Source of the DNA: an uncultured Chloroflexia bacterium
GTDB lineage: Bacteria; Chloroflexota; Anaerolineae; Anaerolineales; UBA4823
Direction of reading: 5' to 3'
Assembly: GCA_963751425.1 (NCBI GenBank)
Contig: CAVVUF010000002.1
Location: 1,790,717-1,854,716 of the forward strand
DNA: 64,000 nucleotides
Position 1 is the stretch's first letter. Each line of letters starts with the position of its first letter. The notes under the pieces are model-generated. The model saw nothing but the letters and a program-made list of their open reading frames with translations. It did not search any database and was not told the DNA's origin. Shown here piece by piece: positions 10,151 through 44,581 of the stretch. Position numbers and translations under genes: made by a program.

Positions 10151-10410
10151 AATGAATGACCCTTGCTCTGACCCCTTCCCTGGCCTTCACTCATTTCAAG
10201 AGAAGAAATGGGTGAGTGAGAAGACTTTCCCCACCGGCACGGTCACCTTCCTGTTTACGGATATCATGGATCTTTTCCTCTAGCCTGGATGTTGGAGGGA
10301 TGATTGCCATAAACCGCCTTCTTTTCGGGGTGTATTGGGGGTAAACCTTACATTATTATCAGTAGAGAAAAAAGGTTATCCCTTTATAATAGCCAAAGGA
10401 GGTGTGCTGG

Positions 10411-15878: not shown

Positions 15879-18153
15879 ATGAGCAAGAAAAAGCCTGTAA
15901 AGGTGGAGATTAATATCAAAGCCATTGCCGGCAGCGGCACAACGAATGTCGCTGGGGGAAATATCGAGCAGAATATCACCCAGCATATTACGATTGTTGA
16001 GGGGAGGGCTTCGGTTGAGACCACACACCCGGCGGTGGAGCCGGGCACCCTGCCACCAGGTTCGCGGCTGCCATTCCGGCGGAATGAGGTTTTCACAGGA
16101 CGGGAGACAGATCTGGAGGTGTTGCGAGAGGCATTGGTGGAAAGGAAGGGCAGTGGGAGGCGGGTGGGGAGTCACCCAGGTAGTGGGGGGGATGGGCGGG
16201 ATTGGCAAGACGCAGCTGGCAGTGGAGTTTTGCTACCGTTATGGTTACTGTTTTACAGGTGTGCACTGGCTCCAGGCGAATCAGGACATTGCGGGGGAGA
16301 TCGCAGCCTGTGGATTTGAGATGGAATTACCCTACTGGCCATCGGCGCAGCCCGAGCAGGTGGAGGTGACCTTGCGGAGCTGGCGCCAATCATCACAGCG
16401 GCTGTTGGTGATGGATAACCTGGAGAGCACCGAAACACTGGGGGAATGGCTGCCGCGTTTGGGGGATGCCTGCGTGCTGCTGACCTCTCGCCGGCAGGAT
16501 TGGCCGCCAGGACTGGGCGTACAGGTGCAACGGATGGGAGTCCTGACTGGGGAGGAAAGCCGGAATCTGCTGGTGAAGTTGGCGCCGCGACTGGAATTCC
16601 TGGATCAGACAGAGTTGGGGAAAGCGGCGGAGAAACTGGGAAATCTGCCCCTGGCCCTCGACCTGGCAGGCAGATACCTGGCTCTGCGGGAAGCGCTTCA
16701 ACTGGGGGAGTACTTGAAGAAGATCGACCAGGCTGGCGGGGCACTGCAAATGGATCACCTGGAGAGTTGGCTAGGCCCTAACCCCACCCGCCATGCACGG
16801 AACCTGGCAGCCACCTTCGAGCTGAGCTGGCGGGAGCTGGACGGGGAGGCGGAGGATCTTAAGGCAGCCAGGCAGATCTTCCTGGCCTGCGGGTACTGTG
16901 CTGCCAACACCCCAATCCCGCGGGAGATTTTGAAAGAGGGGATTATCCAGGATGAACTGTTTCTGGATTTGGGCTTACAACGATTGTATACCTTGGGGCT
17001 GCTGAATAAGGAGCCGCAGGGACCGACGATGCACCCCTTGCTGGAGGAGTTTGCGCGTTTGCAGGATAAGAACGCAGATGAGAGTATACTGACCAGCGTG
17101 GTAGACATTCTAATTCAACTGGGTAACCAGGCCAACAATAGCAGTTTACCCGACCACTTCAAGCCGCTGTACCCCCACTTGCAGGCAGTCGCAAGACATT
17201 CCGAAAAAGCCTCCTTGAAAGAAGATACTGGAAGCCTGTTCAATAACCTGGGATTTTACCTGGATTCCATTGCAGAATATGCCGAGGCGAAACCTTACTA
17301 TGAGCAGGCGCTAGCAATCCGCCGGGAGGTTTTGGGGGAGAAGCACCCCGACACAGCCAGGAGCCTGAACAACCTGGGTGCCTTATTGGATAAAATGGGC
17401 GACTACTCCGGGGCGAAGCCATACTATGAGCAGGCTCTGGCAATCCGTAGAGATGTGCTGGGGGAGAAGCACCCCGACACAGCCAGGAGCCTGAACAACC
17501 TGGGCTACTTGCTGAAGGTCATGGGCGATTATGCCGGGGCGAAATCCTACTATGAGCAGTCGCTATATAACAACCGGGAGTTGCTGGGGGAGAAGCACCC
17601 CGACACAGCCACAAGCCTGAACAACCTGGGTGCCTTGTTGGACAGCATGGGCGACTATGCTGGGGCGAAGCCATACTACGAGCAGGCGCTGGCGATCCGC
17701 CGAGAGGTGCTGGGGGAGAAGCATCCCGACACTGCATTCAGCTTGAACAACCTGGGCTACCTGCTGCAAGCGATGGGCGATTATGTCGGGGCGAAACCTT
17801 ACTATGAGCAGGCGCTATATATCATCCGCGAGGTGCTGGGGGAGAAGCACCCCTACACTGCCCGTAGCTTGAACAACCTGGGCGCGCTGCTGCGGGCGAT
17901 GGGTGATTATGCAGGGGCAAAACCTTACTACGAGCAGGCGCTGGCAATCCGTCGAGAGGTGCTGGGGGAGAAGCACCCCGACACTGCCTTCAGCTTGAAC
18001 AACCTGGGCTACCTGCTGCTGGCAATGGGTGACACAGCCGGAGCGAAGCCTTTCTTCGAGCAGGCGCTGCAGATCTTTGAGGAAAAGCTGCCTGCCGGTC
18101 ACCCAAATATACGGCTTGTCAAAGACAACCTGGAGAGATTGGGGGAAGAGTAG
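15879..18153 (+). CDS. STAND NTPase, NB-ARC (Apaf-1/R-protein type) followed by about 10 TPR repeats (TPR_10/12 type); frameshifted near a G-rich tract (two ORF pieces 15879..16319 and 15925..18153)
   Basis: Frame 0 reads '...EVFTGRETDLEVLREALVERKGSG', then frame +1 reads '...VTQVVGGMGGIGKTQLAVEF' (Walker A of NB-ARC). Downstream are 'LLVMDNLE' (Walker B-like), 'LPLALDLAG' (GLPL-like), then repeated 'AKPYYEQALAIRREVLGEKHPDTARSLNNLGALL' TPR units. The switch lies in the G-rich stretch 16147-16191. A 14-nt gap after the CHAT gene implies an operon. Confidence 0.75.
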
Positions 18154-18316
18154 GCAGTCAGGAGCCAGGGTTGATCGTGTTGAAAGAGGCACGCCGGTAC
18201 TACCGCCTGCCCTTACGTTTGGTGGGAGAGCTTATGATATGAAAAGCAAGCCTCAAAACCCATTGCTTAAAGGTTGAAAATAATATAAGATACTTAAGTA
18301 GCCTAATTCGTTTGGG

Positions 18317-20203
18317 ATGGATGTGATGGAGTCATTCGAAGGAAAATTGCTCGGACATTATCAAATTCTTTCCCAGGTGGATGAGGGGGGGATGGCTACA
18401 ATCTTTAAAGCTATCGATACCCATCTGGAGCGGAACGTAGCGATTAAAATTATCCGCAAGGAAAATTTTAGCCCGAATGTCCTCGAACAGGTGCTCAAGC
18501 GCTTCGAGCGTGAGGCCAAATCACTGGCTCAGCTTTCTCATCCGAATATCGTCAAAGTAATCGATTATGGCGAGTACGAGAACTCTCCATATCTCGTGAT
18601 GGAATTTCTCTCAGGGGGAACGCTCAAACAACGCCTTCAGGAGAAGATCAATACCTACGAGGCTGTGGGATGGCTGATCCCAATTTCGCACGCCCTGGCT
18701 TATGCCCACCACCGTGGGGTGGTCCACCGGGATGTTAAACCTTCCAACATCCTTTTCACCGAAACGAACGAGCCCATGCTGACGGATTTTGGTATCGCGA
18801 AGATCCTGGAAACTCATACGGGTGATTCTTTAACCGGCTCTGGCGTGGGAATTGGCACTCCCGAATACATGGCACCTGAACAGGGCCTTGGGCAGGCGGT
18901 GGATGCGCGCACAGATATCTATGCTTTGGGGATTGTTCTGTATGAGATCCTCACCGGTCGAAGGCCTTTTCAGGCTGATACGCCCATGTCCATCGTCCTC
19001 AAGCACATGAATGAGCCACTGCCCGATCCCAGGCAGTTTACCCCCACCATTTCTGAGTTTGCTGAACAAGTGCTCAATAAAGCCCTGGCAAAAAATCCGG
19101 ATGATCGTTATGCGGATATGGTTGCCTTTGCCAAGGCTCTTTCGCAATTAGCTTCCGAGTACCCCACCGAGCCTGGCAAGTGGATGCCCCTCAAAGCGGT
19201 GGAGGCGGCTGCTTTTACGACAGGACAAGCCGTCGCAGGCAAGCCAGTAGGCACAGGACCCATTTCAGAAGAAGATACCGGAAAACTCCTGATCCGCATC
19301 AGCCGCCTGGAAAAGGTGGTGGAGGAAAGCCTGGCAGCTGAGGATTTCGACGATGCTGAAAATTTAATCCCCACCATCGAGAGTCTTGGCGAACAAGGCC
19401 GCCAGTCTGGAGCCCGCCTGCGCGTTACCTTGGAACACGCTCGGAATAAAGCACACCAGCGAGATACGGATATCTCGAATATCAGATTAGCCTTCCCAAA
19501 AGCTTTGGAGGCTGAGGATATCCCAAAAGCAGAAGAGATGCTGCTCCAGCTCAAAAAACTTGGACCGAAGGGCGTCACACTCGCCAACCAGTTCCAGATT
19601 GCGATCGATACATCCAGGCAGCAAATCACTCTCCGTCAAATTGAAATCAACCGGTTAAAGAACCTGGCTGAGCAGAATATTGCACAGGAGAATTTTTCTC
19701 AAGCCGAGGCTTTGATTCTTTCCTTATCGGTCATCGGGACACAAGGAAAAGCTCAGGCTGCCAGGCTCCAGGAGGCTTTGGAGAAAAGCCAGCAGCAGGT
19801 GGGGCAGCGTAAAGCGCAAATTTATCGTCAATCTGGGTTGGTCGAGAAGCAAATTTCTGAAAGAAATTGGGATGCGGCGCGGAAATCGCTCAAAGAGCTT
19901 GAGAGAATGGGCGCCGAGGGGAAAGCCTCTGCTGAAAAGTTAGGTGAAACCCTGAAAAAAGCAGAGAACGAAGTCACATTCCTGGAACCTATACTCGTCA
20001 GACCGCCTGTTGAGCAGACGATAACATCCCCGCCAATCTCTATGCCTGCCAAGCCCGCCGCTACTGTAAAAGCCCCGGAAAAAAGGAGCATTCCGGGTTT
20101 ACGCTGGATTATCTTCGGGGCGATTTTCTTGTTCATAGGCCTTTTAGCCGGTGGGGGGTTAGCGGTCAGCCTGGCTACCAGGCAAACGCCTAAAAATCGG
20201 TGA
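18317..20203 (+). CDS. Hanks-type Ser/Thr protein kinase with a long coiled-coil repeat region and a C-terminal TM helix
   Basis: 'VAIKII' (VAIK Lys), 'HRDVKPSNIL' (catalytic loop), 'DFGIAK' (DFG), 'GTPEYMAPE' (APE). Four roughly 35-aa internal repeats of the type 'AE..L..L...G..GKA.A..L.E.LEK'. TM 'WIIFGAIFLFIGLLAGGGLAV'. Confidence 0.85.
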   Translation: MDVMESFEGKLLGHYQILSQVDEGGMATIFKAIDTHLERNVAIKIIRKENFSPNVLEQVLKRFEREAKSLAQLSHPNIVKVIDYGEYENSPYLVMEFLSGGTLKQRLQEKINTYEAVGWLIPISHALAYAHHRGVVHRDVKPSNILFTETNEPMLTDFGIAKILETHTGDSLTGSGVGIGTPEYMAPEQGLGQAVDARTDIYALGIVLYEILTGRRPFQADTPMSIVLKHMNEPLPDPRQFTPTISEFAEQVLNKALAKNPDDRYADMVAFAKALSQLASEYPTEPGKWMPLKAVEAAAFTTGQAVAGKPVGTGPISEEDTGKLLIRISRLEKVVEESLAAEDFDDAENLIPTIESLGEQGRQSGARLRVTLEHARNKAHQRDTDISNIRLAFPKALEAEDIPKAEEMLLQLKKLGPKGVTLANQFQIAIDTSRQQITLRQIEINRLKNLAEQNIAQENFSQAEALILSLSVIGTQGKAQAARLQEALEKSQQQVGQRKAQIYRQSGLVEKQISERNWDAARKSLKELERMGAEGKASAEKLGETLKKAENEVTFLEPILVRPPVEQTITSPPISMPAKPAATVKAPEKRSIPGLRWIIFGAIFLFIGLLAGGGLAVSLATRQTPKNR

Positions 20204-20742
20204 GCCCAGGTCAGGAGACCTCACAAGGCAACCAAACTGCTACGGAGAATCAGGAAGGCAGCCTGGACTCAACCAAAATGGCTCTTACAGCACTGCCAAC
20301 TGCTACCGCCGCTGGAGGCATCCTACCTAAACCAACAGCTACTCCCAGCCCTCCTGCTTTGCCAACAGTCACTGCTTCGCTAACCCCGACCCTGACGCCT
20401 ACCCCGCCACGCTATGAGCTAACGATAGACACCGAGAATGCCAATGTCCGCACTGGCCCTGGTACGGTCTACAATATCCTGGCTACAATGCCGCGCGGCA
20501 CGGTATTTGAGGTGGTTGGGCGTAGCGCGGCGGGAGATTGGCTGGTGGTCGAGCTGGAAAACGGCAAGACCGGGTGGATCGCTACTAGAGTGATCCTTTA
20601 CAGATTCGATGCCAACCTGCTGCCAACCGTCCAGGCGCCCCCGACACCGATCGTGCCAACCAAGAAACCCACGGATGTGAAATCCGACCAGTCACCCGGT
20701 CAACCATCCAATCCGCCTACCTGGACGCCACCGCCTCCGTAA
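20200..20742 (+). CDS. Thr/Pro-linker plus SH3b domain; probably the frameshifted extracytoplasmic C-terminus of the kinase
   Basis: No signal peptide. Overlaps the kinase stop (GTGA). 'TPTLTPTPP' linker then 'ANVRTGPGTVYNILATMPRGTVFEVVGRSAAGDWLVVELENGKTGWI' (bacterial SH3). An A5 homopolymer at 20192-20196 lies just upstream of the junction. Confidence 0.5.
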   Translation: MSPGQETSQGNQTATENQEGSLDSTKMALTALPTATAAGGILPKPTATPSPPALPTVTASLTPTLTPTPPRYELTIDTENANVRTGPGTVYNILATMPRGTVFEVVGRSAAGDWLVVELENGKTGWIATRVILYRFDANLLPTVQAPPTPIVPTKKPTDVKSDQSPGQPSNPPTWTPPPP

Positions 20743-20862
20743 CAAAATCTATTCGAATTTTTTCACTATAACAGGGATGATGTGCGAGCAAAAATCTAAT
20801 CCTGAAAGTAAGCTATCCCGAATCACACCAGGCCATTATTATTTTTCGCCGGAGGCTTTGAA

Positions 20863-22523
20863 ATGAAGAATTTTAAATACATTTTTCGCTGCCTGACAGT
20901 CTTGTTGATAATCAGTGGATTTTTTTCTATTCATGTTATGGCATCTCCACACAGCCAGACGGGGGATTTCCCCCAAAAAAAATACCAAGATCCCTTGGAT
21001 TTCCCTGAAGAGGAAAATTCACTTCTGACGCCTCAGACAAACGCAGCGCCTCCAGCCCATTTCGGCCTGCCCACAGAGACCTTTCCGATCTCACTCGTAC
21101 ATATCGAAGTCGAACTCAAACAAAAAATTGAATACGCTGCAAGAATTGGGTTTTGCATGCGACAAATTGGAGGGGTGTGAAGTAGAGATCGACCAAGCCG
21201 CGCTAACCACGCTGAAATTGTTTGGATTTAAATATGAAATCCTGCGCAAAGGGATAGCCGTTCAGATCGATCCGGGCATCGACGCGCCGGATGCATTAGT
21301 CAACAGAGCGGGTGGAAATGATACTGATTACAATATACCAGATTCGACTACCTCCACTTGTGGCTCCGTTGAATTCATCCGTAACTCATCAGCGATGCGC
21401 CAACTGGCGCGACCGTTGATTACGTTGAGTATCGTATCCGTGTGCTGCACACCTGGCCTAGCGATCTGCGGCTGTACCTCAGCAGTCAGAATAACAGTGA
21501 GATTATCTGGGATTTCTTGGGTGGATCGGACGATGGTGGAAAAGATGATGATGTTGAGAATGATGATGATATTTATCTCAATCACCGGCTTATCAACACG
21601 ACATTTGATGGCGAGTCAGTCAACCAGGACTGGTATTTATTCGCCTTTGACTGCGTGCCAGGCGATACCGGAAACATCGATTATCTCGAAGTATGGATCT
21701 GGTATGATGGGGTGGGTCTGCTTTTACCCAACCTGACGCCGTATTGCCCCGCGATTGGGATTTTCCCATCGTGCCCAGCTCTGTAAGCGGAACGAACACT
21801 GTAAACGATTTATTTACCACGAAAACTACCTACATCGACTGGGCCGTGATCAACAATGGCAGCGCCGTGGCGCCCGTTTTTGACACGTGTTTATTCCTGG
21901 ATGCTTCCTTATTGAACTGTTGGTCTACAAGTGAAGGGCTGGAGATCAATTGGTATCTTTATTTAACGGACTGGGTTATTAACATTACTCCCTCCATCGG
22001 CTGGCATACTCTAAAAATCAAGGCAGATTATTTAGAGGGAGTGGATAATGGAAAGGTTCAGGAATCCAACGAGAATGATAATATCTGGAGTTATGATTTT
22101 TATTGGAATCCTTCCCAACGATACACTTACCTGCCATTCGTTTCGTTTAGAACGAAAACTTTTTTTGAGGGTCCGTTTGAGCTGGAACCTAATAACAAAT
22201 ACACACAAGCAAACGGACCGATCCGCTCTGGACAAGATTACCAGGGATACCCTGATGATGTCAATGATTATTTTAGCTTTACGACGGGTACGACCGGAGA
22301 TATTGCGATTAACTTGAGCAATCATACCGGTAATGGAGTGCAGGTGATTCTATATTATCAGTCAACTGCACAGCGGGTTGATCCAGTTTGTCAGAAGCCT
22401 GATGGTGGAACTTCTTGTGTAATCACTTATCCAGCTCGACCAGGCGGTTTATATTATTTACGAATCTATACGGTTTCGAATTTCAACACAACCCCGTATA
22501 CACTGAGGGTGACGTATCCGTAA
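20863..22523 (+). pseudogene. Secreted multidomain protein (signal peptide, proprotein-convertase P-domain-like, CARDB-like, pre-peptidase C-terminal (PPC) domain) broken into 4 ORFs by at least 3 frameshifts
   Basis: ORFs 20863..21180 (signal peptide 'MKNFKYIFRCLTVLLIISGFFSIHVMA'), 21128..21736, 21442..21786 ('YRIRVLHTWPSDLRLYLSSQNNSEIIWDF..GSDDGG' P-domain-like) and 21744..22523 ('TYIDWAVINNGSAVAPVFD' CARDB-like; 'EPNNKYTQANGPIRSGQDY..DDVNDYFSF...YYLRIYTVSNFNTTPYTLRV' PPC domain). They are in frames 1,2,1,0 and each continues the previous one. No protease catalytic domain was seen. Confidence 0.45.
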
Positions 22524-35506: not shown

Positions 35507-35732
35507 GTTCACTTTTTATGTTTTGCTGACAAACTAACGCACGGTATTGTTGACAATTTAGAAAAATCCTGGTACTATTTTTACAGTCGGATGCTAGTGT
35601 GTTACCGTTGGATGTAGTAAGAACTAAATACAAGCCCAAAGCGATCTGCTAAGGGCTAGTTTTCGTTGGCTGCACCGATGGGACGTGTAAGCATCAAAGA
35701 ATTATTCAATTTTACAAGGAGTTAAAAAGGAA

Positions 35733-35945
35733 ATGTCTGAACGTATCGTCGGTACAGTCAAATGGTTCAACAGCAGCAAAGGATATGGTTTCCTGTCTCG
35801 CGAAGATGGTCCAGATGTCTTTGTCCACTTCTCAGCAATTCAATCCCAGGGTTATCGCACTCTGGCAGAAGGTCAAAAAGTGGAGTTCACTGTCGAGAAT
35901 GGACCCAAAGGTCTGCAGGCTTCTAACGTGGTGCTAATCCCTTAA
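35733..35945 (+). CDS. csp: Cold-shock protein (CspA family)
   Basis: '[31 protein letters not shown]' with RNP1/RNP2 motifs; 70 aa. Confidence 0.9.
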
Positions 35946-35967
35946 ATTTTCTTATACCTAAATGACA

Positions 35968-35991
35968 TCACCCCGGTCGAAGCACCGGGGT
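35968..35991 (+). terminator. Rho-independent terminator-like hairpin downstream of csp
   Basis: Perfect 9-bp stem CACCCCGGT / ACCGGGGTG with a 6-nt loop, followed by an A/T-rich stretch. Confidence 0.55.
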
Positions 35992-36063
35992 GAATTAATT
36001 TAATTAAGGCTGAATAGAGGATATTTATTTTGGCAAGCTTTTACATTGTAAAAATAGAAATCG

Positions 36064-36396
36064 TTAGCCTTTTATTTCGAGAACATTTAAGGCTGATTTT
36101 GCTGAGGCGACTTGTTCTGGTTGCCACCCCAATTCAGTACTCATCCGTCTTAAATGGTTAATGACAGCCTCTTTACCTTCTTTATCGAGGGAAGTAAATG
36201 CCTCAACTATCAGGTCGGCCTGGCGGGATAATAATGCATCCCAAAGCTTTTCCAATTCATCTTGAGCTTGTTCCATAAATAGGCGGTATCCCAAAAAATG
36301 CCGGTTGGGCGTTAAGGTCAAGCCGTAAGTGTATATTCGATCCAGAGATGATCTGGAGAGTCGTCTACCTTGATCGCTCCTATAAAGGCTTTCCAT
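36064..36396 (-). CDS. Small alpha-helical ORF; either a separate gene or the frameshifted C-terminal extension of the MBL-fold protein
   Basis: Overlaps the 3' end of 36318..37808 by 78 nt in another frame. The translation is protein-like ('...EQAQDELEKLWDALLSRQADLIVEAFTSLDKEGKEAVINHL...'). Confidence 0.3.
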   Translation of the reverse strand: MESLYRSDQGRRLSRSSLDRIYTYGLTLTPNRHFLGYRLFMEQAQDELEKLWDALLSRQADLIVEAFTSLDKEGKEAVINHLRRMSTELGWQPEQVASAKSALNVLEIKG

Positions 36397-37808
36397 TGGT
36401 CATTTGAAATGAGATTGCCCTTAGGCATATCTGGGACTTGGGGAGGAACATTGGGATCAGGACCACTTCCAGATGGTTCTTCAATGTTGGTAATGATCCG
36501 ACCTTTTGTCCGTTGTTGTAATAGCTGGGAAAGAATTGAGGCTGGCATCTTCCAATGCTTGCTTTTTGCTTTTTCTATGTCTACTGGGATCATCGCAATC
36601 AAATCATCCGCATTCATTGCTAATAAACCACCCTCTAATTGGGTTGCATTGTGACTACCGTGATGACCCACCTTATAGAATGTGGTTCGATTCAGGATAT
36701 CTTTTCCAGTCGGAGATCCAGTCCAAGATTTCCAGTTACCGTATTGTGCATCAGCCGCGAAAAGTAAGATTTTCTTGTTTGGAAGCATTTCAAAAGCAAG
36801 CACCAGGCTTGTGTTGTTGATATCATTATCAAGATCCAGCGCTAATGAACCTGCTCCGCCTAACCAATCCGTATCAATCCGGCGCCAATCCAGCTCAGGA
36901 TTTGGCGATGTATCTGTGCCATAATAATTTTTGTAAAATACTTGAGTTGGATCTTGGGATACGTCATCTATTGGAAAGCCGAGTGAAGTATCAAAAGGCA
37001 GGCTTAAGTTGACTAACTCTTTCAGATCACTCTTAGTCAAACCTTCTGGAAGCCTTCCATTTTGGGTTCGGTTTCCTAATTGAAGAACTGCAGTGGTGAA
37101 AGCGGTTGATTGATTGACAGCTTGTCCACGGTCGAGCTGATTTTTAGTCTTAGGCGGATCGCTACGTTTCAGCGCTTGAAGATCTTTGGGGGGAGCAAGG
37201 ACATGCACCAGTACATCATCCAATCCTTCTAAAGGAAGAACAGTTGTCGGGCCATTCACATCTGGTTGAGGAGCCAGGTATAACTGCTTATTTCCCCAGC
37301 CTTTCACCACATCCATGGCTCCGGGTATTAGAAAATCTTGCAGCTCCTGATAACTCTCGTATTGCTCGCCTTTCTTTTTTAATTCCTCTAAAGCGATATC
37401 TAGAGTTTGAGCGGCTATTTTCCAGTAAGCCCGAAATGTCTCTTTTACATCTGGATCGTCTTTATTTTCTGTCCAAGGCATCCAAACTTGGTTAATCTTG
37501 AAATTCTTTTTAAAAAGGCTCTCATGGAAAACAAATCCAGAAAGATGGTCGGCGTGTTCATGAGTTACAGCGAGCACATGCAGACGTCCGCGAGTAGTAC
37601 TCCGAATATCTTTGACAATTTTCTCGAGGCGGTCTTTTTCTCCCGCTGTTTTCTGGAGAACCCCACAATCAATTAATACATACCGAGTAATCGAGCCTTT
37701 CTTAAATTTTAATAAGAAACAGTCACCCAATCCAGGACGGTACATCCGTATGGAAACCTGCAATTTAGAAGAAGAAGTGGGTGTTGTGGATGATGTCTGG
37801 TTGCTCAT
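36318..37808 (-). CDS. Metallo-beta-lactamase-fold hydrolase with a long C-terminal region of unknown function
   Basis: 'YVLIDCGV' and 'HVLAVTHEHADHLSGF' (HxHxDH zinc motif), later 'KVGHHGSHN'. About 496 aa. Start overlaps the upstream gene stop (ATGA at 37805-37808). Confidence 0.7.
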   Translation of the reverse strand: MSNQTSSTTPTSSSKLQVSIRMYRPGLGDCFLLKFKKGSITRYVLIDCGVLQKTAGEKDRLEKIVKDIRSTTRGRLHVLAVTHEHADHLSGFVFHESLFKKNFKINQVWMPWTENKDDPDVKETFRAYWKIAAQTLDIALEELKKKGEQYESYQELQDFLIPGAMDVVKGWGNKQLYLAPQPDVNGPTTVLPLEGLDDVLVHVLAPPKDLQALKRSDPPKTKNQLDRGQAVNQSTAFTTAVLQLGNRTQNGRLPEGLTKSDLKELVNLSLPFDTSLGFPIDDVSQDPTQVFYKNYYGTDTSPNPELDWRRIDTDWLGGAGSLALDLDNDINNTSLVLAFEMLPNKKILLFAADAQYGNWKSWTGSPTGKDILNRTTFYKVGHHGSHNATQLEGGLLAMNADDLIAMIPVDIEKAKSKHWKMPASILSQLLQQRTKGRIITNIEEPSGSGPDPNVPPQVPDMPKGNLISNDQWKAFIGAIKVDDSPDHLWIEYTLTA

Positions 37809-39790
37809 TCCTTTTCTCCTTCCATTTCATCACGGTGAAGCAATGCAAAGATCTCAAAGGATTCTGAAACTTCGCCCAACGCCTTCCGGTATGGATCACC
37901 AAAGTAGGTGGCCTGGAGCGAAGGGACTTGGCCTCCTTCTAAAATATAACGACGGAGAGCTTCAAGTCGTCTCTGGCTTGTTACCGATTTTCCGATCACG
38001 TAACGAACTTTACCACTTTCCAACGAGATGAGGAAAGTGACTCCTCCTCGAAATAGAAAATCCGCGGTGGGTGGGGAGATTTTCCCGGCCTCCACTTGGT
38101 TCTGTATGTTTGGATCAATATAACCACGCCGTGCCTGGCTTACTTCAACAACAAGGTCAGGCTGGCTGTATTGGTTTTGACTGACCCGATAAGCAAGGCG
38201 GACAGAATTTACTTTGAATGGTAAACCATCCGGATAAAGAACAAGGCTTGGCGAAGGATGCCAGAGTACCAAACGGAGCGATTCTTCGAAATTGTAAAGA
38301 TCCTCAGTGGATAACCTGGCAGTAGATTTAAGATAATTTGAGAGGTCTTTATTCAACCAGCTTTGGAACAGGTTCGCGCAACTAGAGTTGCTTTCGTACA
38401 ACTGCTTTCGGATTTCAATTGCTCTGTCTTCTCTGGATCGATTTACACTCGAACGAGCTACAGTTTCATATTCCTGCATTTTCCGTAAAATTTTGGGAGA
38501 AGAGAAGAAATCACTGATTAATTCCCCGCCTCCACTCGGTGGTCGCCACAGCAAGCTTTCTTCAGATAGGCTGCGTACTTTATCAGGGTATATACCGTAG
38601 CGGCGGAAAGACTCCATCAAGGCAATCCGGTAACCATCAGGGTCCGAAGGGGAGACATCATAATCGGCTGTCATTAAAGCGCGCAGGTATTCTCCAAAAG
38701 TGATATCGACAACGGGAGAATAATCCAGAGCGCGAATGCACATTGTAAGAAGGTGCTGTGAAATTTGCGCAGCTTCCTCAGCCATACGGGTGACCAGGTC
38801 AGGATGAATAGCACCAGGAAGAAGGATCCCAGTACCTCCAGTGGCAATACGTAGGAGATCGGCGATACGAATTTTATAAACAGTCAGGAAGGCATCAAAT
38901 ATTGCTGCCACAAGGATTGATCCGCGTTGGTGAGGCTCTATTGTCTTGGAAAGCAGTGAAGGATCGGCTTTTTCCCCGATTGCACTTCGTAGCGCTCGCC
39001 GGTTGCCAATAGCCTGACCGAATTGCTGCGCCAACTCAGCAAGTAAATTATCGCTGGAAAGGTCTCCTCGTGTGCGTGCAATTTGGTGATAGAGCACTTG
39101 GGGGTATGAAAAATGCTGGAACAGGGCAATGAGATCGGCAAAAGCTTCATGGAAGGCTAAGACATCTGTATTGCTTGGAGTATTGAAATTTGGATGGATA
39201 CCATCTAGAAGAGCATGGGTAACCTCATGGGCAATGATATCGTGGGATAGGCACGTGAAGACAATGCTGCCAGGTAAGATCTTGCTGTCGATATCGCCGG
39301 AGGCGGGAAAATACCCAAACAAGATTGCCTTCTTCACTGGGCTGTAATAGGCATTCGCTTCCCGTAATGCGTGTGGATAAAGTCGCAGCCTGGGAACATA
39401 TTTCCCCTCACCGTTTACCTCTTGAGGGGACCAAAGTACAGGCCTGCTCAAGGCTTCTTCGAAGTTCGCAATGGTTCTACTGGCTACGGCATAAACCATT
39501 TGTTGGTGGAACTGAGGCGTACCTTCGGAAGGGGTCAGGCCTCCTTGTGCTAATAAAAACTTGTGATCTAGATTGACCGGTGGGTAAAACATATTGGATG
39601 GTGGATCGACATCGACTACTTCAAGGTATTCACCGACGGGTCCTGGGTCTAATTCCTCCCACGGGATATTTAGTGAAAGTTGATTGATCGTTGCAGCTTC
39701 TAACTCCAGGTTTAGACTTGGATCAAATGCAAAAACATTGAGCTGCCGAGATTTTGGACGTTGAGGCAAGAAATTTACATCACTAGACAT
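37805..39790 (-). CDS. Thermolysin-like (gluzincin) HExxH zinc metallopeptidase-domain protein, 661 aa
   Basis: 'IIAHEVTHALL', then 18 aa, then 'AFHEAFADLIALF' (compare thermolysin HELTH...NEAISD). No signal peptide. Translationally coupled to the MBL gene. Confidence 0.6.
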   Translation of the reverse strand: MSSDVNFLPQRPKSRQLNVFAFDPSLNLELEAATINQLSLNIPWEELDPGPVGEYLEVVDVDPPSNMFYPPVNLDHKFLLAQGGLTPSEGTPQFHQQMVYAVASRTIANFEEALSRPVLWSPQEVNGEGKYVPRLRLYPHALREANAYYSPVKKAILFGYFPASGDIDSKILPGSIVFTCLSHDIIAHEVTHALLDGIHPNFNTPSNTDVLAFHEAFADLIALFQHFSYPQVLYHQIARTRGDLSSDNLLAELAQQFGQAIGNRRALRSAIGEKADPSLLSKTIEPHQRGSILVAAIFDAFLTVYKIRIADLLRIATGGTGILLPGAIHPDLVTRMAEEAAQISQHLLTMCIRALDYSPVVDITFGEYLRALMTADYDVSPSDPDGYRIALMESFRRYGIYPDKVRSLSEESLLWRPPSGGGELISDFFSSPKILRKMQEYETVARSSVNRSREDRAIEIRKQLYESNSSCANLFQSWLNKDLSNYLKSTARLSTEDLYNFEESLRLVLWHPSPSLVLYPDGLPFKVNSVRLAYRVSQNQYSQPDLVVEVSQARRGYIDPNIQNQVEAGKISPPTADFLFRGGVTFLISLESGKVRYVIGKSVTSQRRLEALRRYILEGGQVPSLQATYFGDPYRKALGEVSESFEIFALLHRDEMEGEKE

Positions 39791-39994
39791 GGAAGCCTTC
39801 CTAATCCAATCTTTTTCACTGCTGCGGTTTTTCTCATTCTTAAGCTATCTGTATTTTAGAGTATTCTTCTCCGAAATGCAAGGTTGATTTCCTTCGGTTA
39901 GAATACTTGTGAAATTATGACATTGGAAATAAAATATACCTTATAATTAAGAGAAATATTATCCTGATAAACCGTATATACTGGAGGCATATTT

Positions 39995-42247
39995 ATGGGA
40001 ATTCCTGATAATGAAATGGGTCGAGATTTTATTCTTGCTACTCCAGGCGAATACCTTGGATCTGTGATAAACCGGTTATTGAAACAAGGGGGAAATGATT
40101 ATAGTTTTTTACTCTTGAAAACTGACGTAGCTTCCTTCAAGGCTTGCCAGGTTGGCAAACTTAAGCTGCGTTTGAAATTTTATCCAGAAAATGAACTGTT
40201 TACCAAGAAGTTAGGAGAATTAATCTCTGACTTTACCGATGTGCCTGTGCTACAGCAGGCGGAAGCCAATCTAAACGCCGCCAGGCAGTTAGCTCAAAAA
40301 AATTCTTTGGGTTTTTTGGTTGTGATGGAAAATGATGCCGTGGTCGGGTATGTTTGGCTAGTCAGACGGACGGTTTATCCGGGGAAATCTTTCGGTGAAG
40401 TTTTTCAAACTTTCCAGAATCAGTTTCCTTCGGCAAATGAATTGATTGAAAGCGGGGAACCGAAATCTGCGAAGCCTCGTGCAGAGCGCAATGTTGTCAA
40501 TACCGGTTTTACTACTCGGGATGACCCCAAGACTTTGCTCGATAAAACCAAAGCCTTGACTCCGGCAGGCGAGTACTATTTTATCCTGGGGGTTGGAGAG
40601 GTACTGACTGGTTCAATTGAAAAAACCCCAACCTCATTACCTGAGCATCTTCCCGCCCATGCGTTACTGCAAGTCGTATTATTTGATTTTGAGGATGAGT
40701 TGTCGATTGATCCACAAGCCAGCATTGGACTTCTGGAGCTGCAAGAGGATGGCTCTGCAAGCATTGTTCGACAGCCTGGTAATGCAAGGATTGCTCCAGA
40801 GATACCCTGGCTGCAGTTTCCAATTAAAACACCCGCGCTCAGTGGCCTTAAACGGCTGCGGTGTAATATTTACTACAACCAATGCCTGGTCCAATCTCGC
40901 TTAGTTAGTGCCCAGGTGTTTCCGAATGGGGATTATCGTGGAGAAGATCCGGCACTGGTATCTGAGTTGGATTACAATCTCTCGCAGAGCATGGCTGCGG
41001 GGCACTTGATGGGTATTCAAGAACACCGCTTGAGTTTGATGATAAACGATAATGGAAATGGCACGCATGGCTTCCGCTTCTTTGGAAAAGATGAATTCAA
41101 ATCTGATGCATCCATCGATGGGCAGGAGCTGCAGGGGTTGATCGATTATGCCCGTGCTGTATTTCGGAAGACAGCTTGGGGAGATGAAAAAAATTTTTCT
41201 GGTCAGGCTTACCGTTATGCCGGTCCACCAGATTTGAATCGTTTCCGCGATGATCTTTGCAACCTGGCTGTCCGCGGATATCGAATATACGATCAGATCA
41301 TCAACAAATTAGCCGGAGGCCAGGCTCAAACTCGAAAACTATCGGAGTTAATGGGAGCGCGAGGTCTTGTGCAAATCGCGTTGAAACAAACGGCGCGTTT
41401 TGTGATACCCGCTGCTCTAATCTATGATTATCCCCTGGACACAGGAGCTGATTCCAAAGATTATCAAGTATGCCCAGAATTTTTAAAGGCTTTGGCTGGC
41501 CCGACACCCTTAGATCAATGTATCTGTTTCGATGGTAAATGCCCCTCGAAAGGAGATGATCTTACGATATGCCCGAGTGGTTTCTGGGGTTTTCGCCAGG
41601 ATCTCGGGATGCCGCTGTCATTGGCAGATGCGCCAGATGCGCCAACAGAAATCACTGTGCAGGGCAGCCCCAATTACGTGATCGCTGTGTGTCTCGATCC
41701 GAATTTCACCATGCGAGCCGGGCATGAGACCCGTTTGAAAAATATGCTAACGCAGGTGCAGTGGACCAGGGCAGACAGCCGTGATGCCACTTTTGATGCA
41801 ATGAAGGTTGCACAACCGGCTCTTGTTTATTTCTACTGCCATGGCGGGTTAACGAGCAGCAATGTACCCTTTATTCAAATCGGCTCAATGGACGAGCGAG
41901 GCATTACCCGCGATAACTTGCGTGCGAAGGGTGTATTCTGGGAAAATCCGCGACCTTTGGTTTTCATCAATGGCTGCCATACAACTGCCTTGGAACCCGA
42001 GTCAGCTTTTGAGTTGGTAAGTGGTTTTGTAGAAGTAGCTGGCGCTTCTGGAGTTATCGGGACAGAGATCACAATCTTCGAACCGATTGCAACTGCCTTT
42101 GCAGAGAATTTCTTGCAGGCCTTCAGCCAGGGTGTTGAAGTGGGAGAGGCGATCCGCCAGTCTCGCCTGGCATTGTTGAAACAGAGCAATCCATTAGGGC
42201 TGGTATATATCCCCTATACGATGGCAGGCTTACACATTAAAATGTGA
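39995..42247 (+). CDS. CHAT (caspase-like) protease-domain protein with a large N-terminal region of unknown function, 750 aa
   Basis: C-terminal 'ALVYFYCHGG' (catalytic His) and 'LVFINGCHTTA' (catalytic Cys) in the CHAT arrangement. The N-terminal approx. 500 aa matches no domain I recognise. Divergent from the MBL/peptidase operon. Confidence 0.6.
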   Translation: MGIPDNEMGRDFILATPGEYLGSVINRLLKQGGNDYSFLLLKTDVASFKACQVGKLKLRLKFYPENELFTKKLGELISDFTDVPVLQQAEANLNAARQLAQKNSLGFLVVMENDAVVGYVWLVRRTVYPGKSFGEVFQTFQNQFPSANELIESGEPKSAKPRAERNVVNTGFTTRDDPKTLLDKTKALTPAGEYYFILGVGEVLTGSIEKTPTSLPEHLPAHALLQVVLFDFEDELSIDPQASIGLLELQEDGSASIVRQPGNARIAPEIPWLQFPIKTPALSGLKRLRCNIYYNQCLVQSRLVSAQVFPNGDYRGEDPALVSELDYNLSQSMAAGHLMGIQEHRLSLMINDNGNGTHGFRFFGKDEFKSDASIDGQELQGLIDYARAVFRKTAWGDEKNFSGQAYRYAGPPDLNRFRDDLCNLAVRGYRIYDQIINKLAGGQAQTRKLSELMGARGLVQIALKQTARFVIPAALIYDYPLDTGADSKDYQVCPEFLKALAGPTPLDQCICFDGKCPSKGDDLTICPSGFWGFRQDLGMPLSLADAPDAPTEITVQGSPNYVIAVCLDPNFTMRAGHETRLKNMLTQVQWTRADSRDATFDAMKVAQPALVYFYCHGGLTSSNVPFIQIGSMDERGITRDNLRAKGVFWENPRPLVFINGCHTTALEPESAFELVSGFVEVAGASGVIGTEITIFEPIATAFAENFLQAFSQGVEVGEAIRQSRLALLKQSNPLGLVYIPYTMAGLHIKM

Positions 42248-42253
42248 GTAATC

Positions 42254-42496
42254 GTGTCGATACTAAACATTTTAGGTAGTATTGGGATCGGAGCTGTAAT
42301 GGGGTGGCTACTTGGCCTCTTGGAACCAAGACGGCTTCGTATTAGCCAGTTGTTAGCGATCTTATTTGCCAATGGGTTGATCCTACTTGAAATTGTTTGG
42401 TTTACAGGCTGGCAGATAGCTGTCGCTGCATTCTGCAGTGGTTTTTTCATGTTCTTGATCCATAAATTGTGGCGCAGAGAATTGCGCCGTCGTTGA
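42254..42496 (+). CDS. Small 2-TM membrane protein with a basic C-terminus (GlsB/YeaQ/YmgE-like glycine-zipper helix)
   Basis: 'ILGSIGIGAVMGWLLGLL' plus a second TM, and tail 'HKLWRRELRRR'. Starts 7 nt after the CHAT gene stop (GTG). Confidence 0.4.
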   Translation: MSILNILGSIGIGAVMGWLLGLLEPRRLRISQLLAILFANGLILLEIVWFTGWQIAVAAFCSGFFMFLIHKLWRRELRRR

Positions 42497-42527
42497 CATA
42501 TCCATTCATTTTCAGGAGGTAATACTT

Positions 42528-42932
42528 ATGGAACCATCAGCATCCACAATCCAATTAGTAGGCGCAGCAGGTTTTGGCGCGTTGATCGGTTGGTATGTTT
42601 ACTATATCAATCGTTATCGGAAGAGTGAGGTGTCACTTAATGATCTCGTTACGCTAATTGGCGTATTAGGTGGTGGAGCTATCCTAGCAATTTTTCCTGA
42701 ACGCACGGATCTTTTTGGTGCATATGGAATTGGCCTATTTGTGGGGTTCTTTTCCTACTTCATCTTGCTGTTGGTATGGGTGAGTATATCCAAGAACTTC
42801 ACTGTGGAATGGTTTCTGGATGGCCGGCGAAAACGACCAATGGAACCTTTCTTTATCCCGGAGGATAAAGCTGGAGGAACTGCGATGGGCATGCCAAACG
42901 AGGCAGGTGGGAAAACAACCGTAAATGATTAA
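42528..42932 (+). CDS. Small 3-TM membrane protein, paralogous N-terminal helix to the preceding ORF
   Basis: 'LVGAAGFGALIGWYVYYI' shares the G-x-G-A-x-x-G-W motif with the previous ORF. RBS 'caggaggtaatactt' before the ATG. Confidence 0.45.
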   Translation: MEPSASTIQLVGAAGFGALIGWYVYYINRYRKSEVSLNDLVTLIGVLGGGAILAIFPERTDLFGAYGIGLFVGFFSYFILLLVWVSISKNFTVEWFLDGRRKRPMEPFFIPEDKAGGTAMGMPNEAGGKTTVND

Positions 42933-43287
42933 AGAGGTTTCAGATAATATAATCTTGATGTAAGAAGAGCTTTTGAGTTTTTCAGAGTCGACCCGACTGG
43001 AATTACTTCCAGCCTGAGAGGCTTTGGGATTGGTTTTTCTAATACCTTGATTTCACTTTACTTGATTTGCCGATTCGCGCAAAAATCTTTAAAATAACGT
43101 GGGATTTCGACAAATAATAAGAACATGATGACGAAAATAGGCGACAACCTCTTGACAGGAATATTTAAATATATAAAATCAGAGTAATCTTCGAGTCTTT
43201 AACGAATGTTTTGTGAGGTAATGAATTTCGGAAATGATTTTGTCACAGTTAATCTCACGCCTGTTTGTATTTTCTAATGTGTAGCAA

Positions 43288-43329
43288 TGTAAGAACAAGG
43301 ACGCGGTTTGTTGCGTCCTTGTTCTTACA
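43288..43329. other. Perfect 17-bp inverted repeat / stable hairpin in a 660-bp non-coding AT-rich region
   Basis: TGTAAGAACAAGGACGC ggtttgtt GCGTCCTTGTTCTTACA, with no T-run after it. Confidence 0.5.
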
Positions 43330-43607
43330 TAATGATCGAGAGGAAGGGTGTGGGTATGCCAACAGGACCACTTTCAGACCGGATTGATTGTATTACCGAA
43401 AGACCGCTGTACGAAACGATGAAGAGACAGTCCATACCAAAATACAGGTTCAGCTTCACATATCGCAGAAAGCCCTGAGATTTTTTCTGATGATTCTCAA
43501 GAACTATGGCATGCCTCCCAGATCAATTGCCCCATTCCACCTCGCTATCCCGATCAATGGATGTCGTAAAATAAAGAATAATCTTCTTCAAAGCATGTGA
43601 TGAGGGG

Positions 43608-44153
43608 TTGTTTCAAATCTCAATGGAAGAACTCATTCATCATGATTCCTTAATTCAATCTCTTTCTTTTGAAAATCCAACTCTCCAGTTACACGAATTA
43701 TTAAACAACTATATAATTGTGACAAATTTGAGAACAGTGCAAAAAATTAATATTGGCATTGGCTTTTTCGTATATTTCAATAAGGAGATTCCTATGCAAT
43801 GGGAAAATTTAACTTCCAATGATTTTAGAGCTGCTGTGGAAGCAACCCAGGTTTGTATTATTGCTTTGGGGGTTGTGGAGAGGCATAGTGATCACTTGCC
43901 CCTCGGAACTGATTTCCTCAACGGCCATCGGATTGCCTGCCTGGCTGCAGAGAAAGAACCCGCGGTTGTGTTTCCCCCCTTTTATTTTGGCCAAATATAT
44001 GAAGCACGCTGTTTCCCTGGCACGATAAATTTGAAACCTAACCTTCTTCTTGATGTGCTGTGGAACGTATTTGATGAAATCGCCCGGAATGGATTTAAGA
44101 AATCGTTCTTTTTAATGCGCATGGTGGAAATAACCATCTATTGGGCTTTCTAG
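43608..44153 (+). CDS. Creatininase/creatinine amidohydrolase-family protein, N-terminal piece (frameshifted)
   Basis: 'ALGVVERHSDHLPLGTDFL', 'FPPFYFGQIYEARCFPGTINL'. The frame is lost after 'NGFKK'. Confidence 0.6.
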   Translation: MFQISMEELIHHDSLIQSLSFENPTLQLHELLNNYIIVTNLRTVQKINIGIGFFVYFNKEIPMQWENLTSNDFRAAVEATQVCIIALGVVERHSDHLPLGTDFLNGHRIACLAAEKEPAVVFPPFYFGQIYEARCFPGTINLKPNLLLDVLWNVFDEIARNGFKKSFFLMRMVEITIYWAF

Positions 44154-44581
44154 GACAATGCGCTCTTTGGGAGGAGAAGCCATATCACCTATATATCCCA
44201 ACCAATCTGTTTGACCGTGCCCAATGGAAAGCGATCTTAGACACGGAATACCACGGACATGCTTGTGAGTGTGAGACCAGTGTCACTCTGGCAAATTACC
44301 CTGAACTAGTGCATATGGAGCGAGTTCCAGCTGAACCTGGTGATCCGAAAGGTCGTATGAGCAGCCTTCCGGCAACCTATAATGGGATTTGGTGGTATGC
44401 AGATCATCCTGAGCATTACGCTGGAGATGCGCGCACGGCGTCTGCTGAAAAAGGGAAGCAACTCGTCCGATTGGAAGTGGAAGGGCTCGCGCGTTATCTC
44501 GCGGCAGTAAAAGAAGATCAGATCATCCCGACCTTGACAGCGGAGTTTTTTGAAAAAGAAAATGGATTAGCCAGATCATAG
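44141..44581 (+). CDS. Creatininase-family protein, C-terminal piece
   Basis: The upstream in-frame extension reads 'KIVLFNAHGGNNHLLGF' (the NxHGGN family motif), so the junction lies at 'aagaaatcg' near 44098-44103. Confidence 0.55.
   Translation: MGFLGQCALWEEKPYHLYIPTNLFDRAQWKAILDTEYHGHACECETSVTLANYPELVHMERVPAEPGDPKGRMSSLPATYNGIWWYADHPEHYAGDARTASAEKGKQLVRLEVEGLARYLAAVKEDQIIPTLTAEFFEKENGLARS

Follow-up and report, generated by a model that had tools for sequence, protein, structure and literature searches.

Positions 36064-42932 of a 64,000-nt stretch from an uncultured Chloroflexia bacterium (the window, meaning the whole stretch of DNA that was analysed) encode an HExxH peptidase (PEP) and a metallo-beta-lactamase (MBL)-fold protein, divergently from a caspase-like CHAT protease and two small proteins with predicted transmembrane (TM) helices, TM1 and TM2. 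Our favoured reading, held at slightly better than even confidence, is that this interval contains two autonomous, separately inherited conflict-type cassettes, probably anti-phage, which are neighbours by chance: PEP-MBL (module A) and CHAT-TM1-TM2 (module B). A first-pass annotation of this DNA had proposed a single CHAT-centred unit of five genes, which we had to give up, as for most of the family the genes do not co-occur elsewhere. The five open reading frames (ORFs) that it named are nonetheless all present, with catalytic motifs that look intact, and are laid out as follows:

37805..39790, minus strand: PEP, first gene of module A, 661 aa, HExxH metallopeptidase
36318..37808, minus strand: MBL, second gene of module A, 496 aa, predicted ComEC-type MBL-fold nuclease
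39791..39994, no strand: divergent AT-rich intergenic region between the modules, 204 nt
39995..42247, plus strand: CHAT, first gene of module B, 750 aa, clan CD caspase-like protease
42254..42496, plus strand: TM1, second gene of module B, 80 aa, three predicted TM helices and a basic C-terminus
42528..42932, plus strand: TM2, third gene of module B, 134 aa, about three TM helices

PEP and MBL travel as a pair

The stop codon of PEP and the start codon of MBL share an ATGA overlap, and the tight operonic coupling that the first-pass annotation had read from it extends to the relatives. We surveyed one genome per species (at least 509 relatives) and examined the best 80 loci, with 10 kb on either side; an MBL homologue lay directly 3' of PEP in 76 of the 80 genome loci, and the other 4 were cut at a contig edge (76/76 informative). 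MBL begins within a few bases of where PEP ends, most often at a gap of -4, which is the ATGA overlap of the window. Linkage was also seen from the other side, with PEP immediately upstream of MBL homologues in 3/3 cases (35-41% identity), and the pairwise identities of PEP and MBL co-vary (Mantel r 0.77, 0/999 permutations as high). No other genuine gene recurred in more than 7/80 of these loci when the flanking ORFs were clustered all against all.

The family is broad: all 8000 scored candidates for PEP homology were significant, which puts the family at no fewer than 8000 clusters, and its members are 45-60% identical across phyla (mean 54%), several of the named homologues at 56-61% identity coming from Chloroflexota/Anaerolineae. 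Among the best 80 relatives we found Acidobacteriota, Gemmatimonadota, Planctomycetota, Chloroflexota, Bacteroidota, Pseudomonadota, Actinomycetota, Armatimonadota, Verrucomicrobiota and Clostridia, together with one euryarchaeal bin. PEP is present on 112 plasmid records, half of them conjugative. On a plasmid of Rhizobium sp. CCGE 510 (L054), two PEP-MBL pairs lie less than 10 kb apart on opposite strands (9935-13778 and 18070-21446). A phage or prophage origin was considered and rejected: MBL and the CHAT core are absent from IMG/VR, and the PEP-like catalytic domains found there are distant (25-36% identity).

Some loci carry additional genes around the pair. A C14 caspase gene, co-directional and adjoining PEP-MBL either before PEP or after MBL, occurs in 7/80 loci, and these caspases are not detected by the CHAT-core profile; a patatin gene lies directly upstream of PEP in 6/80; and SMC-like ATPase-PEP-MBL operons, with an SMC-like/AAA ATPase gene that overlaps the start of PEP, occur in L187 and on a plasmid of Hymenobacter. 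A defence effector pair would be expected to acquire sensors and effectors in this modular way. Further neighbours in some loci include SIR2 with IS5, an E2/ThiF/JAB gene with WYL and patatin, CanC-like nucleases, TIR, and genes matching reverse transcriptase (RT)-protease models.

Two other arrangements deserve separate mention. On plasmid pCMU01 of Methylorubrum extorquens CM4 (L183, 5717-10259), a gene annotated as 'S8 family serine peptidase' (1032 aa) is an S8-PEP fusion, with the subtilase at the N-terminus of PEP, followed by an MBL-fold gene, with two SIR2 genes, an IS5 transposase and an AAA ATPase with a 3'-5' exonuclease in its flanks. At L143 (4211-7323) and L144, a distant PEP-like protein (26% identity) stands 3' of a CHAT-family gene and is followed by a calpain-like C2 cysteine peptidase, with no MBL.

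CHAT belongs with TM1 and TM2

PEP and CHAT are divergently oriented, 204 nt apart, and promoter-like matches in the region between them (39791-39994) are no commoner than in shuffled sequence; on the CHAT side, the gaps are 6 nt from CHAT to TM1 and 31 nt from TM1 to TM2. We examined 80 of 341 relatives of this second module in metagenome loci, and the coupling of CHAT to small membrane proteins, already suggested by the first reading of the locus, held there: TM2 adjoins CHAT in 59/80 loci, and 18 of the other 21 are cut at the relevant contig edge, leaving 59/62 among informative loci. The profile hidden Markov model (HMM) of the TM1 family matches in 47/80 CHAT loci, and in 47/49 loci with room for one, a small gene predicted to encode two or three TM helices stands directly 5' of TM2. 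Distant relatives have the order TM1-TM2-CHAT and the window's clade CHAT-TM1-TM2, and because both orders occur, the association has outlived a rearrangement.

The two modules, in turn, seldom meet. Profile HMMs for the CHAT core, TM1 and TM2 had a match in 0/80 loci, to 10 kb on either side of PEP-MBL, and outside the window's clade a true PEP occurs in only 1 of ~75 other CHAT loci (L104).

The CHAT domain was assigned by Pfam (PF12770, E 1.3e-8, 35.1 bits vs a cut-off of 24), and its catalytic dyad is present, with H616-G617 and C661 invariant in 28 aligned sequences (H616, window 41840-41842; C661 in INGC661HT, window 41975-41977). The protein also has a conserved four-Cys cluster (C493, C511, C516 and C526). 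Its best match in the PDB, the CHAT-domain protein 8tl0, is weak (E 0.23). Residues ~160-750 form the family core common to homologues, and the N-terminal domains that precede it vary among them (protein kinase, CARDB, SIR2_2, Hsp70, or none). The N-terminal 160 aa of the window's own CHAT (window 39995-40474) occur only in its close relatives (69-91% identity) and have no Pfam match.

Hydrophobic segments number three in TM1 and two to three in TM2; neither protein gave anything significant in Pfam, NCBIfam or PADLOC. The first-pass annotation had called the two proteins paralogous, which stands for the first helix (hhalign probability 57%, BLASTP E 9e-4), but the similarity is confined to it. 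TM2 is the most conserved component of the module (median identity 65% vs ~45% for CHAT), and its conservation peaks in the tail motif DWFLDGRRKRPxEPYYIP, which belongs to the juxtamembrane tail EWFLDGRRKRPMEPFFIPED (residues 94-113, window 42807-42866). The TM2 family counts 489 representatives at 50% clustering of a 1.8-billion-protein library. The positive-inside rule would put the two basic segments of TM2, namely the loop at 28-32 and RRKR at 100-103, in the cytoplasm, and the tail would therefore lie on the same side as the signal-less CHAT protease; an N-terminal hydrophobic segment is absent from all three large proteins, in agreement with the earlier remark that none has a signal peptide.

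The membrane module of TM2 is found in other protease contexts. In P0347, P0350 and P0366, a membrane module of the TM2 type, complete with the DWFLDGRRKRP tail, makes up the N-terminal part and a pro-kumamolisin/S8 peptidase (S8/S53, sedolisin-like) the C-terminal part of a single protein, and since the module is fused to S8/S53 peptidases in these proteins, we regard it as a recurrent protease partner. In L188 (6001-7863), a fusion of the TM2 module to a peptidase has no CHAT gene nearby.

Some defence genes occur around CHAT-TM loci, among them a complete CanABC, SAVED-TIR, SduA and Cas6/CARF, and in the loci examined no sigma factor or regulator is conserved beside CHAT-TM. The complete canu system (CanA/CanB/CanC) is in L131 (9816-14186), where it is convergent with a TM2-CHAT module 58 nt away (KaeCanC E 1e-60, KaeCanA E 1e-39).

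MBL carries insertions at the gating positions of known nucleases

The best PDB match of the MBL family profile is ComEC, and a structure model built from a 107-sequence alignment (mean predicted local distance difference test score, pLDDT, 89.4) has Pce, 1wra, as its best Foldseek match. On this model MBL is a ComEC-type phosphodiesterase/nuclease fold with ~250 additional residues. Its motifs HEHADH (HxHxDH, residues 83-88, window 37545-37562), D353 and H382/H383 are invariant in the family alignments. Set against the 266-aa ComEC domain in a secondary-structure map, the 496 aa of MBL hold extra segments at ~113-170, 206-335 and 443-496.

In the curated collections the Pfam match of MBL is sub-threshold, and PADLOC matches (LmuA at 1.6e-16, RTasMBL, PDC-M48B and Avs1a) are mainly N-terminal, with their best stretches within residues 18-117 and a second matched stretch for LmuA. 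The defence-type MBL models (LmuA, Avs1a, RTasMBL and 6A-MBL) outscore the ComEC model. In NCBIfam, MBL scores 33.5 bits vs a cut-off of 420 for Avs1a and 32 vs 220 for 6A-MBL. We rejected MBL as a member of curated Avs1a, LmuA or 6A-MBL, its similarity being N-terminal only and far under the cut-offs.

For a comparison with the nucleases themselves, we took the sequences of KaeCanC and an Avs-type nuclease from the supplementary table of Tuck et al. (PMC12799240). Each of them can be aligned to the MBL family profile across the N-terminal 80-90 residues (hhalign probability 89-91%), and a direct alignment of the three has collinear anchors (GDxFL, THxxxDH, VW, VLxPxxxLxxLK, NNxS(L/I), GDA and KVxHH), the additional sequence of MBL falling in the same two anchor intervals as in KaeCanC and the Avs-type nuclease. 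The first interval, HxHxDH to VLxP, spans 120 residues in MBL (93 in KaeCanC, 118 in the Avs-type nuclease), and the second, VLxP to NNxS, 128 (68 and 79, respectively). The MBL insertions are predicted as ordered helices (pLDDT ~80-90) with near-invariant residues, including W308-R-R-I-x-x-D314-W315.

PEP is a metallopeptidase by its motifs

PEP contains HEVTH at residues 188-192 (window 39215-39229) and HEAFAD at 214-219 (window 39134-39151), both invariant in 22 aligned sequences. With ExxxD 21 residues after HExxH, we take this to be the gluzincin third-zinc-ligand pattern; at motif level PEP thus bears a gluzincin-type signature, HExxH plus a downstream Glu as the presumptive third zinc ligand. 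The three domain calls of the first-pass annotation (MBL, HExxH peptidase and CHAT) were correct; their motifs, read from the sequence, are invariant in family alignments.

PEP has no significant match in Pfam, NCBIfam or PADLOC (Pfam was likewise empty for PEP together with 21 relatives) and no sequence relative in the PDB. One homologue, P0028, carries a precomputed Pfam Peptidase_M4 assignment. Structure prediction from the 22-sequence alignment reached a pLDDT of 53.7, with the catalytic region below 50, and Foldseek with that model returned only noise.

Many homologues are double. The whole PEP unit is tandemly duplicated in 39/120 of the best homologues (including P0006, P0016 and P0028), and the N-terminal copy is often without the catalytic Glu (HQxxH, as in HQLAH and HQVAH), while the C-terminal copy keeps HExxH. 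These duplications hint at a dimeric, regulated protease with a built-in pseudo-protease partner. We had considered the ~1130-aa PEP homologues as PEP-MBL fusions of the Rosetta-stone kind, a candidate that we rejected, as they are tandem PEP duplications. In one relative of the window (L161, 7786-9780) the PEP frame is spread over three ORFs (88, 432 and 152 aa), with MBL, CHAT, TM1 and TM2 intact, which is either decay or the result of long-read indel errors.

A protease that would unmask a nuclease

Published work gives a template for module A. ComEC-like MBL nucleases with two insertions that block the active site are pro-enzymes unmasked by a co-encoded protease (Tuck et al., Science 2025, PMC12799240); another radiation of such nucleases pairs with other proteases, including the caspase-nuclease system canu, and their protease partner has been swapped repeatedly, the partners surveyed being only subtilase, caspase/CHAT and trypsin, with metalloproteases unmentioned (PMC12799240). 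The published gating loops, in HamM, Avs1a and CanC, are disordered, and the nuclease gene usually lies upstream of the protease gene (PMC12799240).

PEP-MBL resembles HamM/protease-HamA, Avs1a/Avs1b and the Lamassu and DRT variants in having a ComEC-like MBL with insertions at two positions between HxHxDH and NNxS/GDA, and it resembles such protease-gated pairs generally in its adjacent, operonic and co-varying protease, its mobility and its various sensor genes (SMC-like ATPase, STAND NTPase). It differs in that PEP is an HExxH enzyme rather than trypsin-like, and free-standing rather than fused to a sensor, and in that the MBL of the window has 496 aa vs ~350-400, with insertions that are predicted to be ordered and are conserved.

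We therefore propose the following scheme, in which we infer the defence role, the proteolytic activation of the nuclease, the membrane topology and the cleavage partners. In module A, a protease-nuclease pair, MBL would be a ComEC-type DNase whose insertions stand where HamM, Avs1a and CanC carry autoinhibitory gating insertions, and the translationally coupled PEP would be its activating protease; upon a trigger, PEP would cut MBL and release DNA degradation, leading to abortive infection or growth arrest. Because the pair has no other conserved partner in most genomes, we would place the sensor inside PEP, in its non-catalytic N- and C-terminal regions, and in some genomes the module would gain an extra gene (an SMC-like ATPase, an NB-ARC/TPR STAND NTPase, a caspase or a patatin) or an S8 domain fused to PEP. 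In module B, TM1 and TM2 would form a small inner-membrane complex linked to the caspase-like CHAT protease, with the cytoplasmic TM2 tail docking CHAT or being cleaved by it, such that a membrane event would be coupled to proteolysis, or proteolysis to membrane damage. The general logic of a protease plus an effector, which the earlier reader had seen here, we judge reasonable.

PEP-MBL is probably a new metalloprotease variant of the protease-activated nuclease pairs. That PEP gates MBL by proteolysis we hold to be about evenly balanced, mainly because the MBL insertions are predicted to be ordered and contain near-invariant residues; and that PEP-MBL by itself represents a very widespread, unrecognised fourth protease class of pro-nuclease defence pair seems to us a proposal that falls a little short of even.

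The alternative that survives best accepts PEP-MBL as a genuine conflict module but not as a gated pro-nuclease: the two proteins could form a stable complex in which both are effectors, or PEP could cut phage or host proteins or pro-enzymes (e.g. a patatin), and the insertions would then be a structured subdomain for DNA binding or PEP docking. The ordered and conserved insertions of MBL, unlike the disordered loops of HamM, Avs1a and CanC, speak for this, as do the patatin gene immediately upstream of PEP in 6/80 loci, a protease-first gene order unlike most published pairs, and the tandem duplication of a third of PEP homologues, with an N-terminal copy often HQxxH, which suggests a regulated dimeric protease with its own logic. 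We consider it unlikely, however, since the strict linkage and co-variation with a ComEC-type nuclease, whose insertions fall exactly at gating positions, make the published mechanism the simplest, and no alternative PEP substrate is conserved in the neighbourhood.

Comparison with other named systems

Canu (CanABC) shares with the window a clan-CD protease gene near a ComEC-type nuclease gene, but MBL aligns with KaeCanC over ~85 N-terminal residues only, and the CHAT of the window is linked to TM proteins and divergent from the nuclease. PEP as the CanB of canu was rejected, KaeCanB having 347 aa and no HExxH and no PEP gene being matched in the compared loci. Among the fetched loci, in a search that did not include the window, KaeCanA and KaeCanB matched no PEP, CHAT or TM gene; the real canu locus that it found is that of L131. 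ComEC/Rec2 (PDB 9ic4, 30bt) has a competence membrane channel and OB-fold that the MBL of the window lacks; the latter is soluble and stand-alone, has ~250 extra residues, always comes with PEP and is frequently carried on plasmids. Thermolysin-type gluzincins (MEROPS clan MA(E), e.g. M4) have the motif in common with PEP, which is without a significant Pfam match or PDB relative.

Borvo (BovA) is a single-gene cytoplasmic CHAT protease in phage defence and the only PADLOC defence model that touches the CHAT of the window, in a marginal match that covers the catalytic core only and is not significant (E 0.009, 12.6 bits). Borvo is not known to have associated membrane proteins. Bacterial gasdermins with a caspase-like/CHAT protease likewise have a protease encoded beside a membrane-acting protein, a logic to which the first-pass annotation had drawn an analogy; gasdermins, however, are soluble gasdermin-fold pro-toxins, whereas TM1 and TM2, each with two or three predicted TM helices, are small and constitutively integral to the membrane, and neither was matched by a gasdermin model or a Pfam family. 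The earlier statement that no named system fits holds at the level of curated models: PADLOC, NCBIfam and Pfam are empty for PEP, TM1 and TM2, and their matches are N-terminal or weak for MBL and CHAT. In the literature, we found no description of a metallopeptidase-MBL pair or of a system of CHAT plus small TM proteins.

Conflict modules or housekeeping

A second alternative is that one or both modules are not defence, CHAT-TM1-TM2 serving membrane regulated proteolysis or signalling (of the anti-sigma type) or quality control, and PEP-MBL accessory turnover of nucleic acids or peptides. The neighbours of both modules are mostly metabolic or housekeeping genes, neither module was found on viral contigs, TM2 and PEP are highly conserved, and a CHAT domain is known in the transmembrane anti-sigma factor DdvA (PMC11506125). 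On the other hand, the phyletic spread is patchy (at least 509 relatives in many phyla) with frequent plasmid carriage, flanks differ from locus to locus, and domain shuffling is of the sort typical of conflict systems (variable CHAT N-termini; S8, SMC, STAND, caspase and patatin add-ons). Known defence genes, moreover, recur nearby (CanABC, SIR2, the E2/ThiF/JAB gene of CBASS-type systems and SAVED-TIR), and the absence of a conserved sigma factor or regulator beside CHAT-TM does not favour an anti-sigma role; we rate this alternative as rather improbable.

It has to be said that a number of observations weigh against two defence cassettes of the kind that we favour. The gluzincin identity of PEP comes from its motifs, and its conservation (mean 54% across phyla) is unusually high for a defence gene. 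The insertions of MBL may be a functional subdomain and not a removable gate, the published loops being disordered, and PEP lies upstream of the nuclease gene in the window, where published proteases are usually downstream. Neither family matches a PADLOC or NCBIfam system model. The bulk of PEP-MBL neighbours are ordinary metabolic genes, the neighbours of CHAT-TM are mostly metabolic too, and the flanks in the window (csp, amylase, creatininase and apiosidase) are ordinary genes. Lastly, the co-localisation of both modules in two unrelated lineages, together with caspases abutting PEP-MBL in 7/80 loci, means that some functional cross-talk may exist.

One system or two

This last point bears on the third alternative, a single integrated system or proteolytic cascade in which the membrane-associated CHAT would sense or relay a signal and act on PEP or MBL, or in parallel on the same nuclease as in canu. 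The modules are adjacent in the window's clade, namely in L081 (90% DNA identity), L082-L085 and L161, and independently in a second lineage, L104, where identity is 43% for PEP and 46% for CHAT, the GC content is 0.58 and the genes are ordered differently. C14 caspase genes are co-directional with and directly adjacent to PEP-MBL in 7/80 genomes, and pairs of a caspase/CHAT protease with a nuclease are a proven defence architecture (PMC12799240). Two independent co-localisations exceed chance for unlinked genes, yet they are expected for two island-dwelling systems, and independent systems normally co-localise in defence islands.

The remaining evidence runs the other way. None of the 80 PEP-MBL loci has a CHAT core, TM1 or TM2 within 10 kb, and CHAT-TM loci with flanks, save those of the window's clade and L104, have no PEP-MBL. 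The two modules are transcribed divergently. In relatives that are 76% identical a STAND gene stands between the modules. The MBL of the window belongs to the PEP-linked clade and not to the CanC clade (496 vs 356 aa, with only the N-terminal 85 residues aligning), and the C14 caspases of other PEP-MBL loci escape the CHAT-core profile. One integrated system is thus distinctly improbable, a functional cascade linking both cassettes highly so. We consider very improbable indeed a three-tier pathway of initiator, executioner and nuclease, in which TM1/TM2 would sense an envelope perturbation (e.g. phage DNA entry or holin action) and act through CHAT and then PEP to unmask MBL.

The STAND gene itself is seen in L082 (3893-6466; also in L083 and L084; ~76% identical), where it measures ~2.8 kb, encodes an 857-aa NB-ARC/TPR STAND NTPase, precedes PEP by 67 nt in the same orientation and falls exactly between the modules. 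It could be a sensor of PEP-MBL, one without a counterpart in the window's lineage.

Significance of the two families

With at least 8000 clusters, at least 509 species genomes and 112 plasmids, PEP-MBL is among the more abundant uncharacterised two-gene cassettes measured, and current annotation and defence-finder pipelines are blind to PEP because it has no Pfam, NCBIfam or PADLOC model. Both modules are widespread, and current defence-annotation models detect them only partly. If PEP-MBL does work like HamMAB, Avs1 and canu, the principle of a protease that unmasks a nuclease would extend to metalloproteases, the prediction of repeated protease recruitment by the nuclease made by Tuck et al. 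(PMC12799240) would be supported, and mechanistic work would gain a minimal version with two genes and no sensor. The other unassigned family is CHAT-TM1-TM2, in which a caspase-like protease is joined to a conserved membrane module that occurs elsewhere in direct fusions with subtilases, and this trio may be a new coupling of membrane events to proteolysis. For genome scanning, the lesson is that attractive domains side by side do not define a system; here neighbourhood conservation redrew the boundaries.

Genomic setting and minor features of the window

Two further features lie at the left end of the interval:

35968..35993, both strands: bidirectional intrinsic-terminator-like hairpin (10-bp stem, 7 GC pairs, T-rich tails), between the csp end and the end of the minus-strand PEP-MBL operon
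36064..36276, minus strand: small lineage-specific ORF 3' of MBL, likely a 70-aa product starting at M41 (MEQAQDELEKLW...)

The left edge that had been drawn for the cluster stands only in part, 36064-36317 being outside the MBL gene and holding this separate small ORF. Called mechanically, the ORF runs over 36064-36396 (110 aa) and shares 79 nt with the 3' end of MBL. Its identity in L081 is 74%, conservation in L161 (48%) is confined to its C-terminal 62 aa, L082 and all other loci lack it, and it has no family match in Pfam, PADLOC or NCBIfam.

The flanks consist upstream of csp, a GH13 amylase and an SPFH protein, and downstream of a creatininase, an apiosidase and a pirin. The Rfam cspA thermoregulator (RF01766) matches at full length over 35528-35997 (90.9 bits), a span that encloses the csp gene (35733-35945). 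In L161 (69% identical) the flanks are the same, with extra genes (an MFS gene and others) between csp and MBL. The idea of an accessory insertion at this site gains some support because the csp-to-creatininase interval varies among relatives, but an argument from GC fails: the GC drop at ~36 kb runs on into the downstream housekeeping genes, and as these share the cluster's GC of 0.47-0.48, we rejected composition as insertion evidence.

The creatininase gene (43608-44581) is split, its ORFs 43608-44153 and 44141-44581 matching Pfam positions 1-106 and 151-237, and L161 has an intact 261-aa gene; the split is a frameshift that marks either a pseudogene or a sequencing error. The long non-coding stretch described in the first-pass annotation, 43031-43503 (~474 nt), is missing from the 90%-identical L081 and may hold a small gene or a mobile remnant. 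Within it are a perfect 18-bp inverted repeat with an 8-nt loop (43287-43330), unique in the window, and a short ORF from 43356 (MPTGPLSDRIDCI...) whose first part is similar to a 69-aa ORF located correspondingly in L161.

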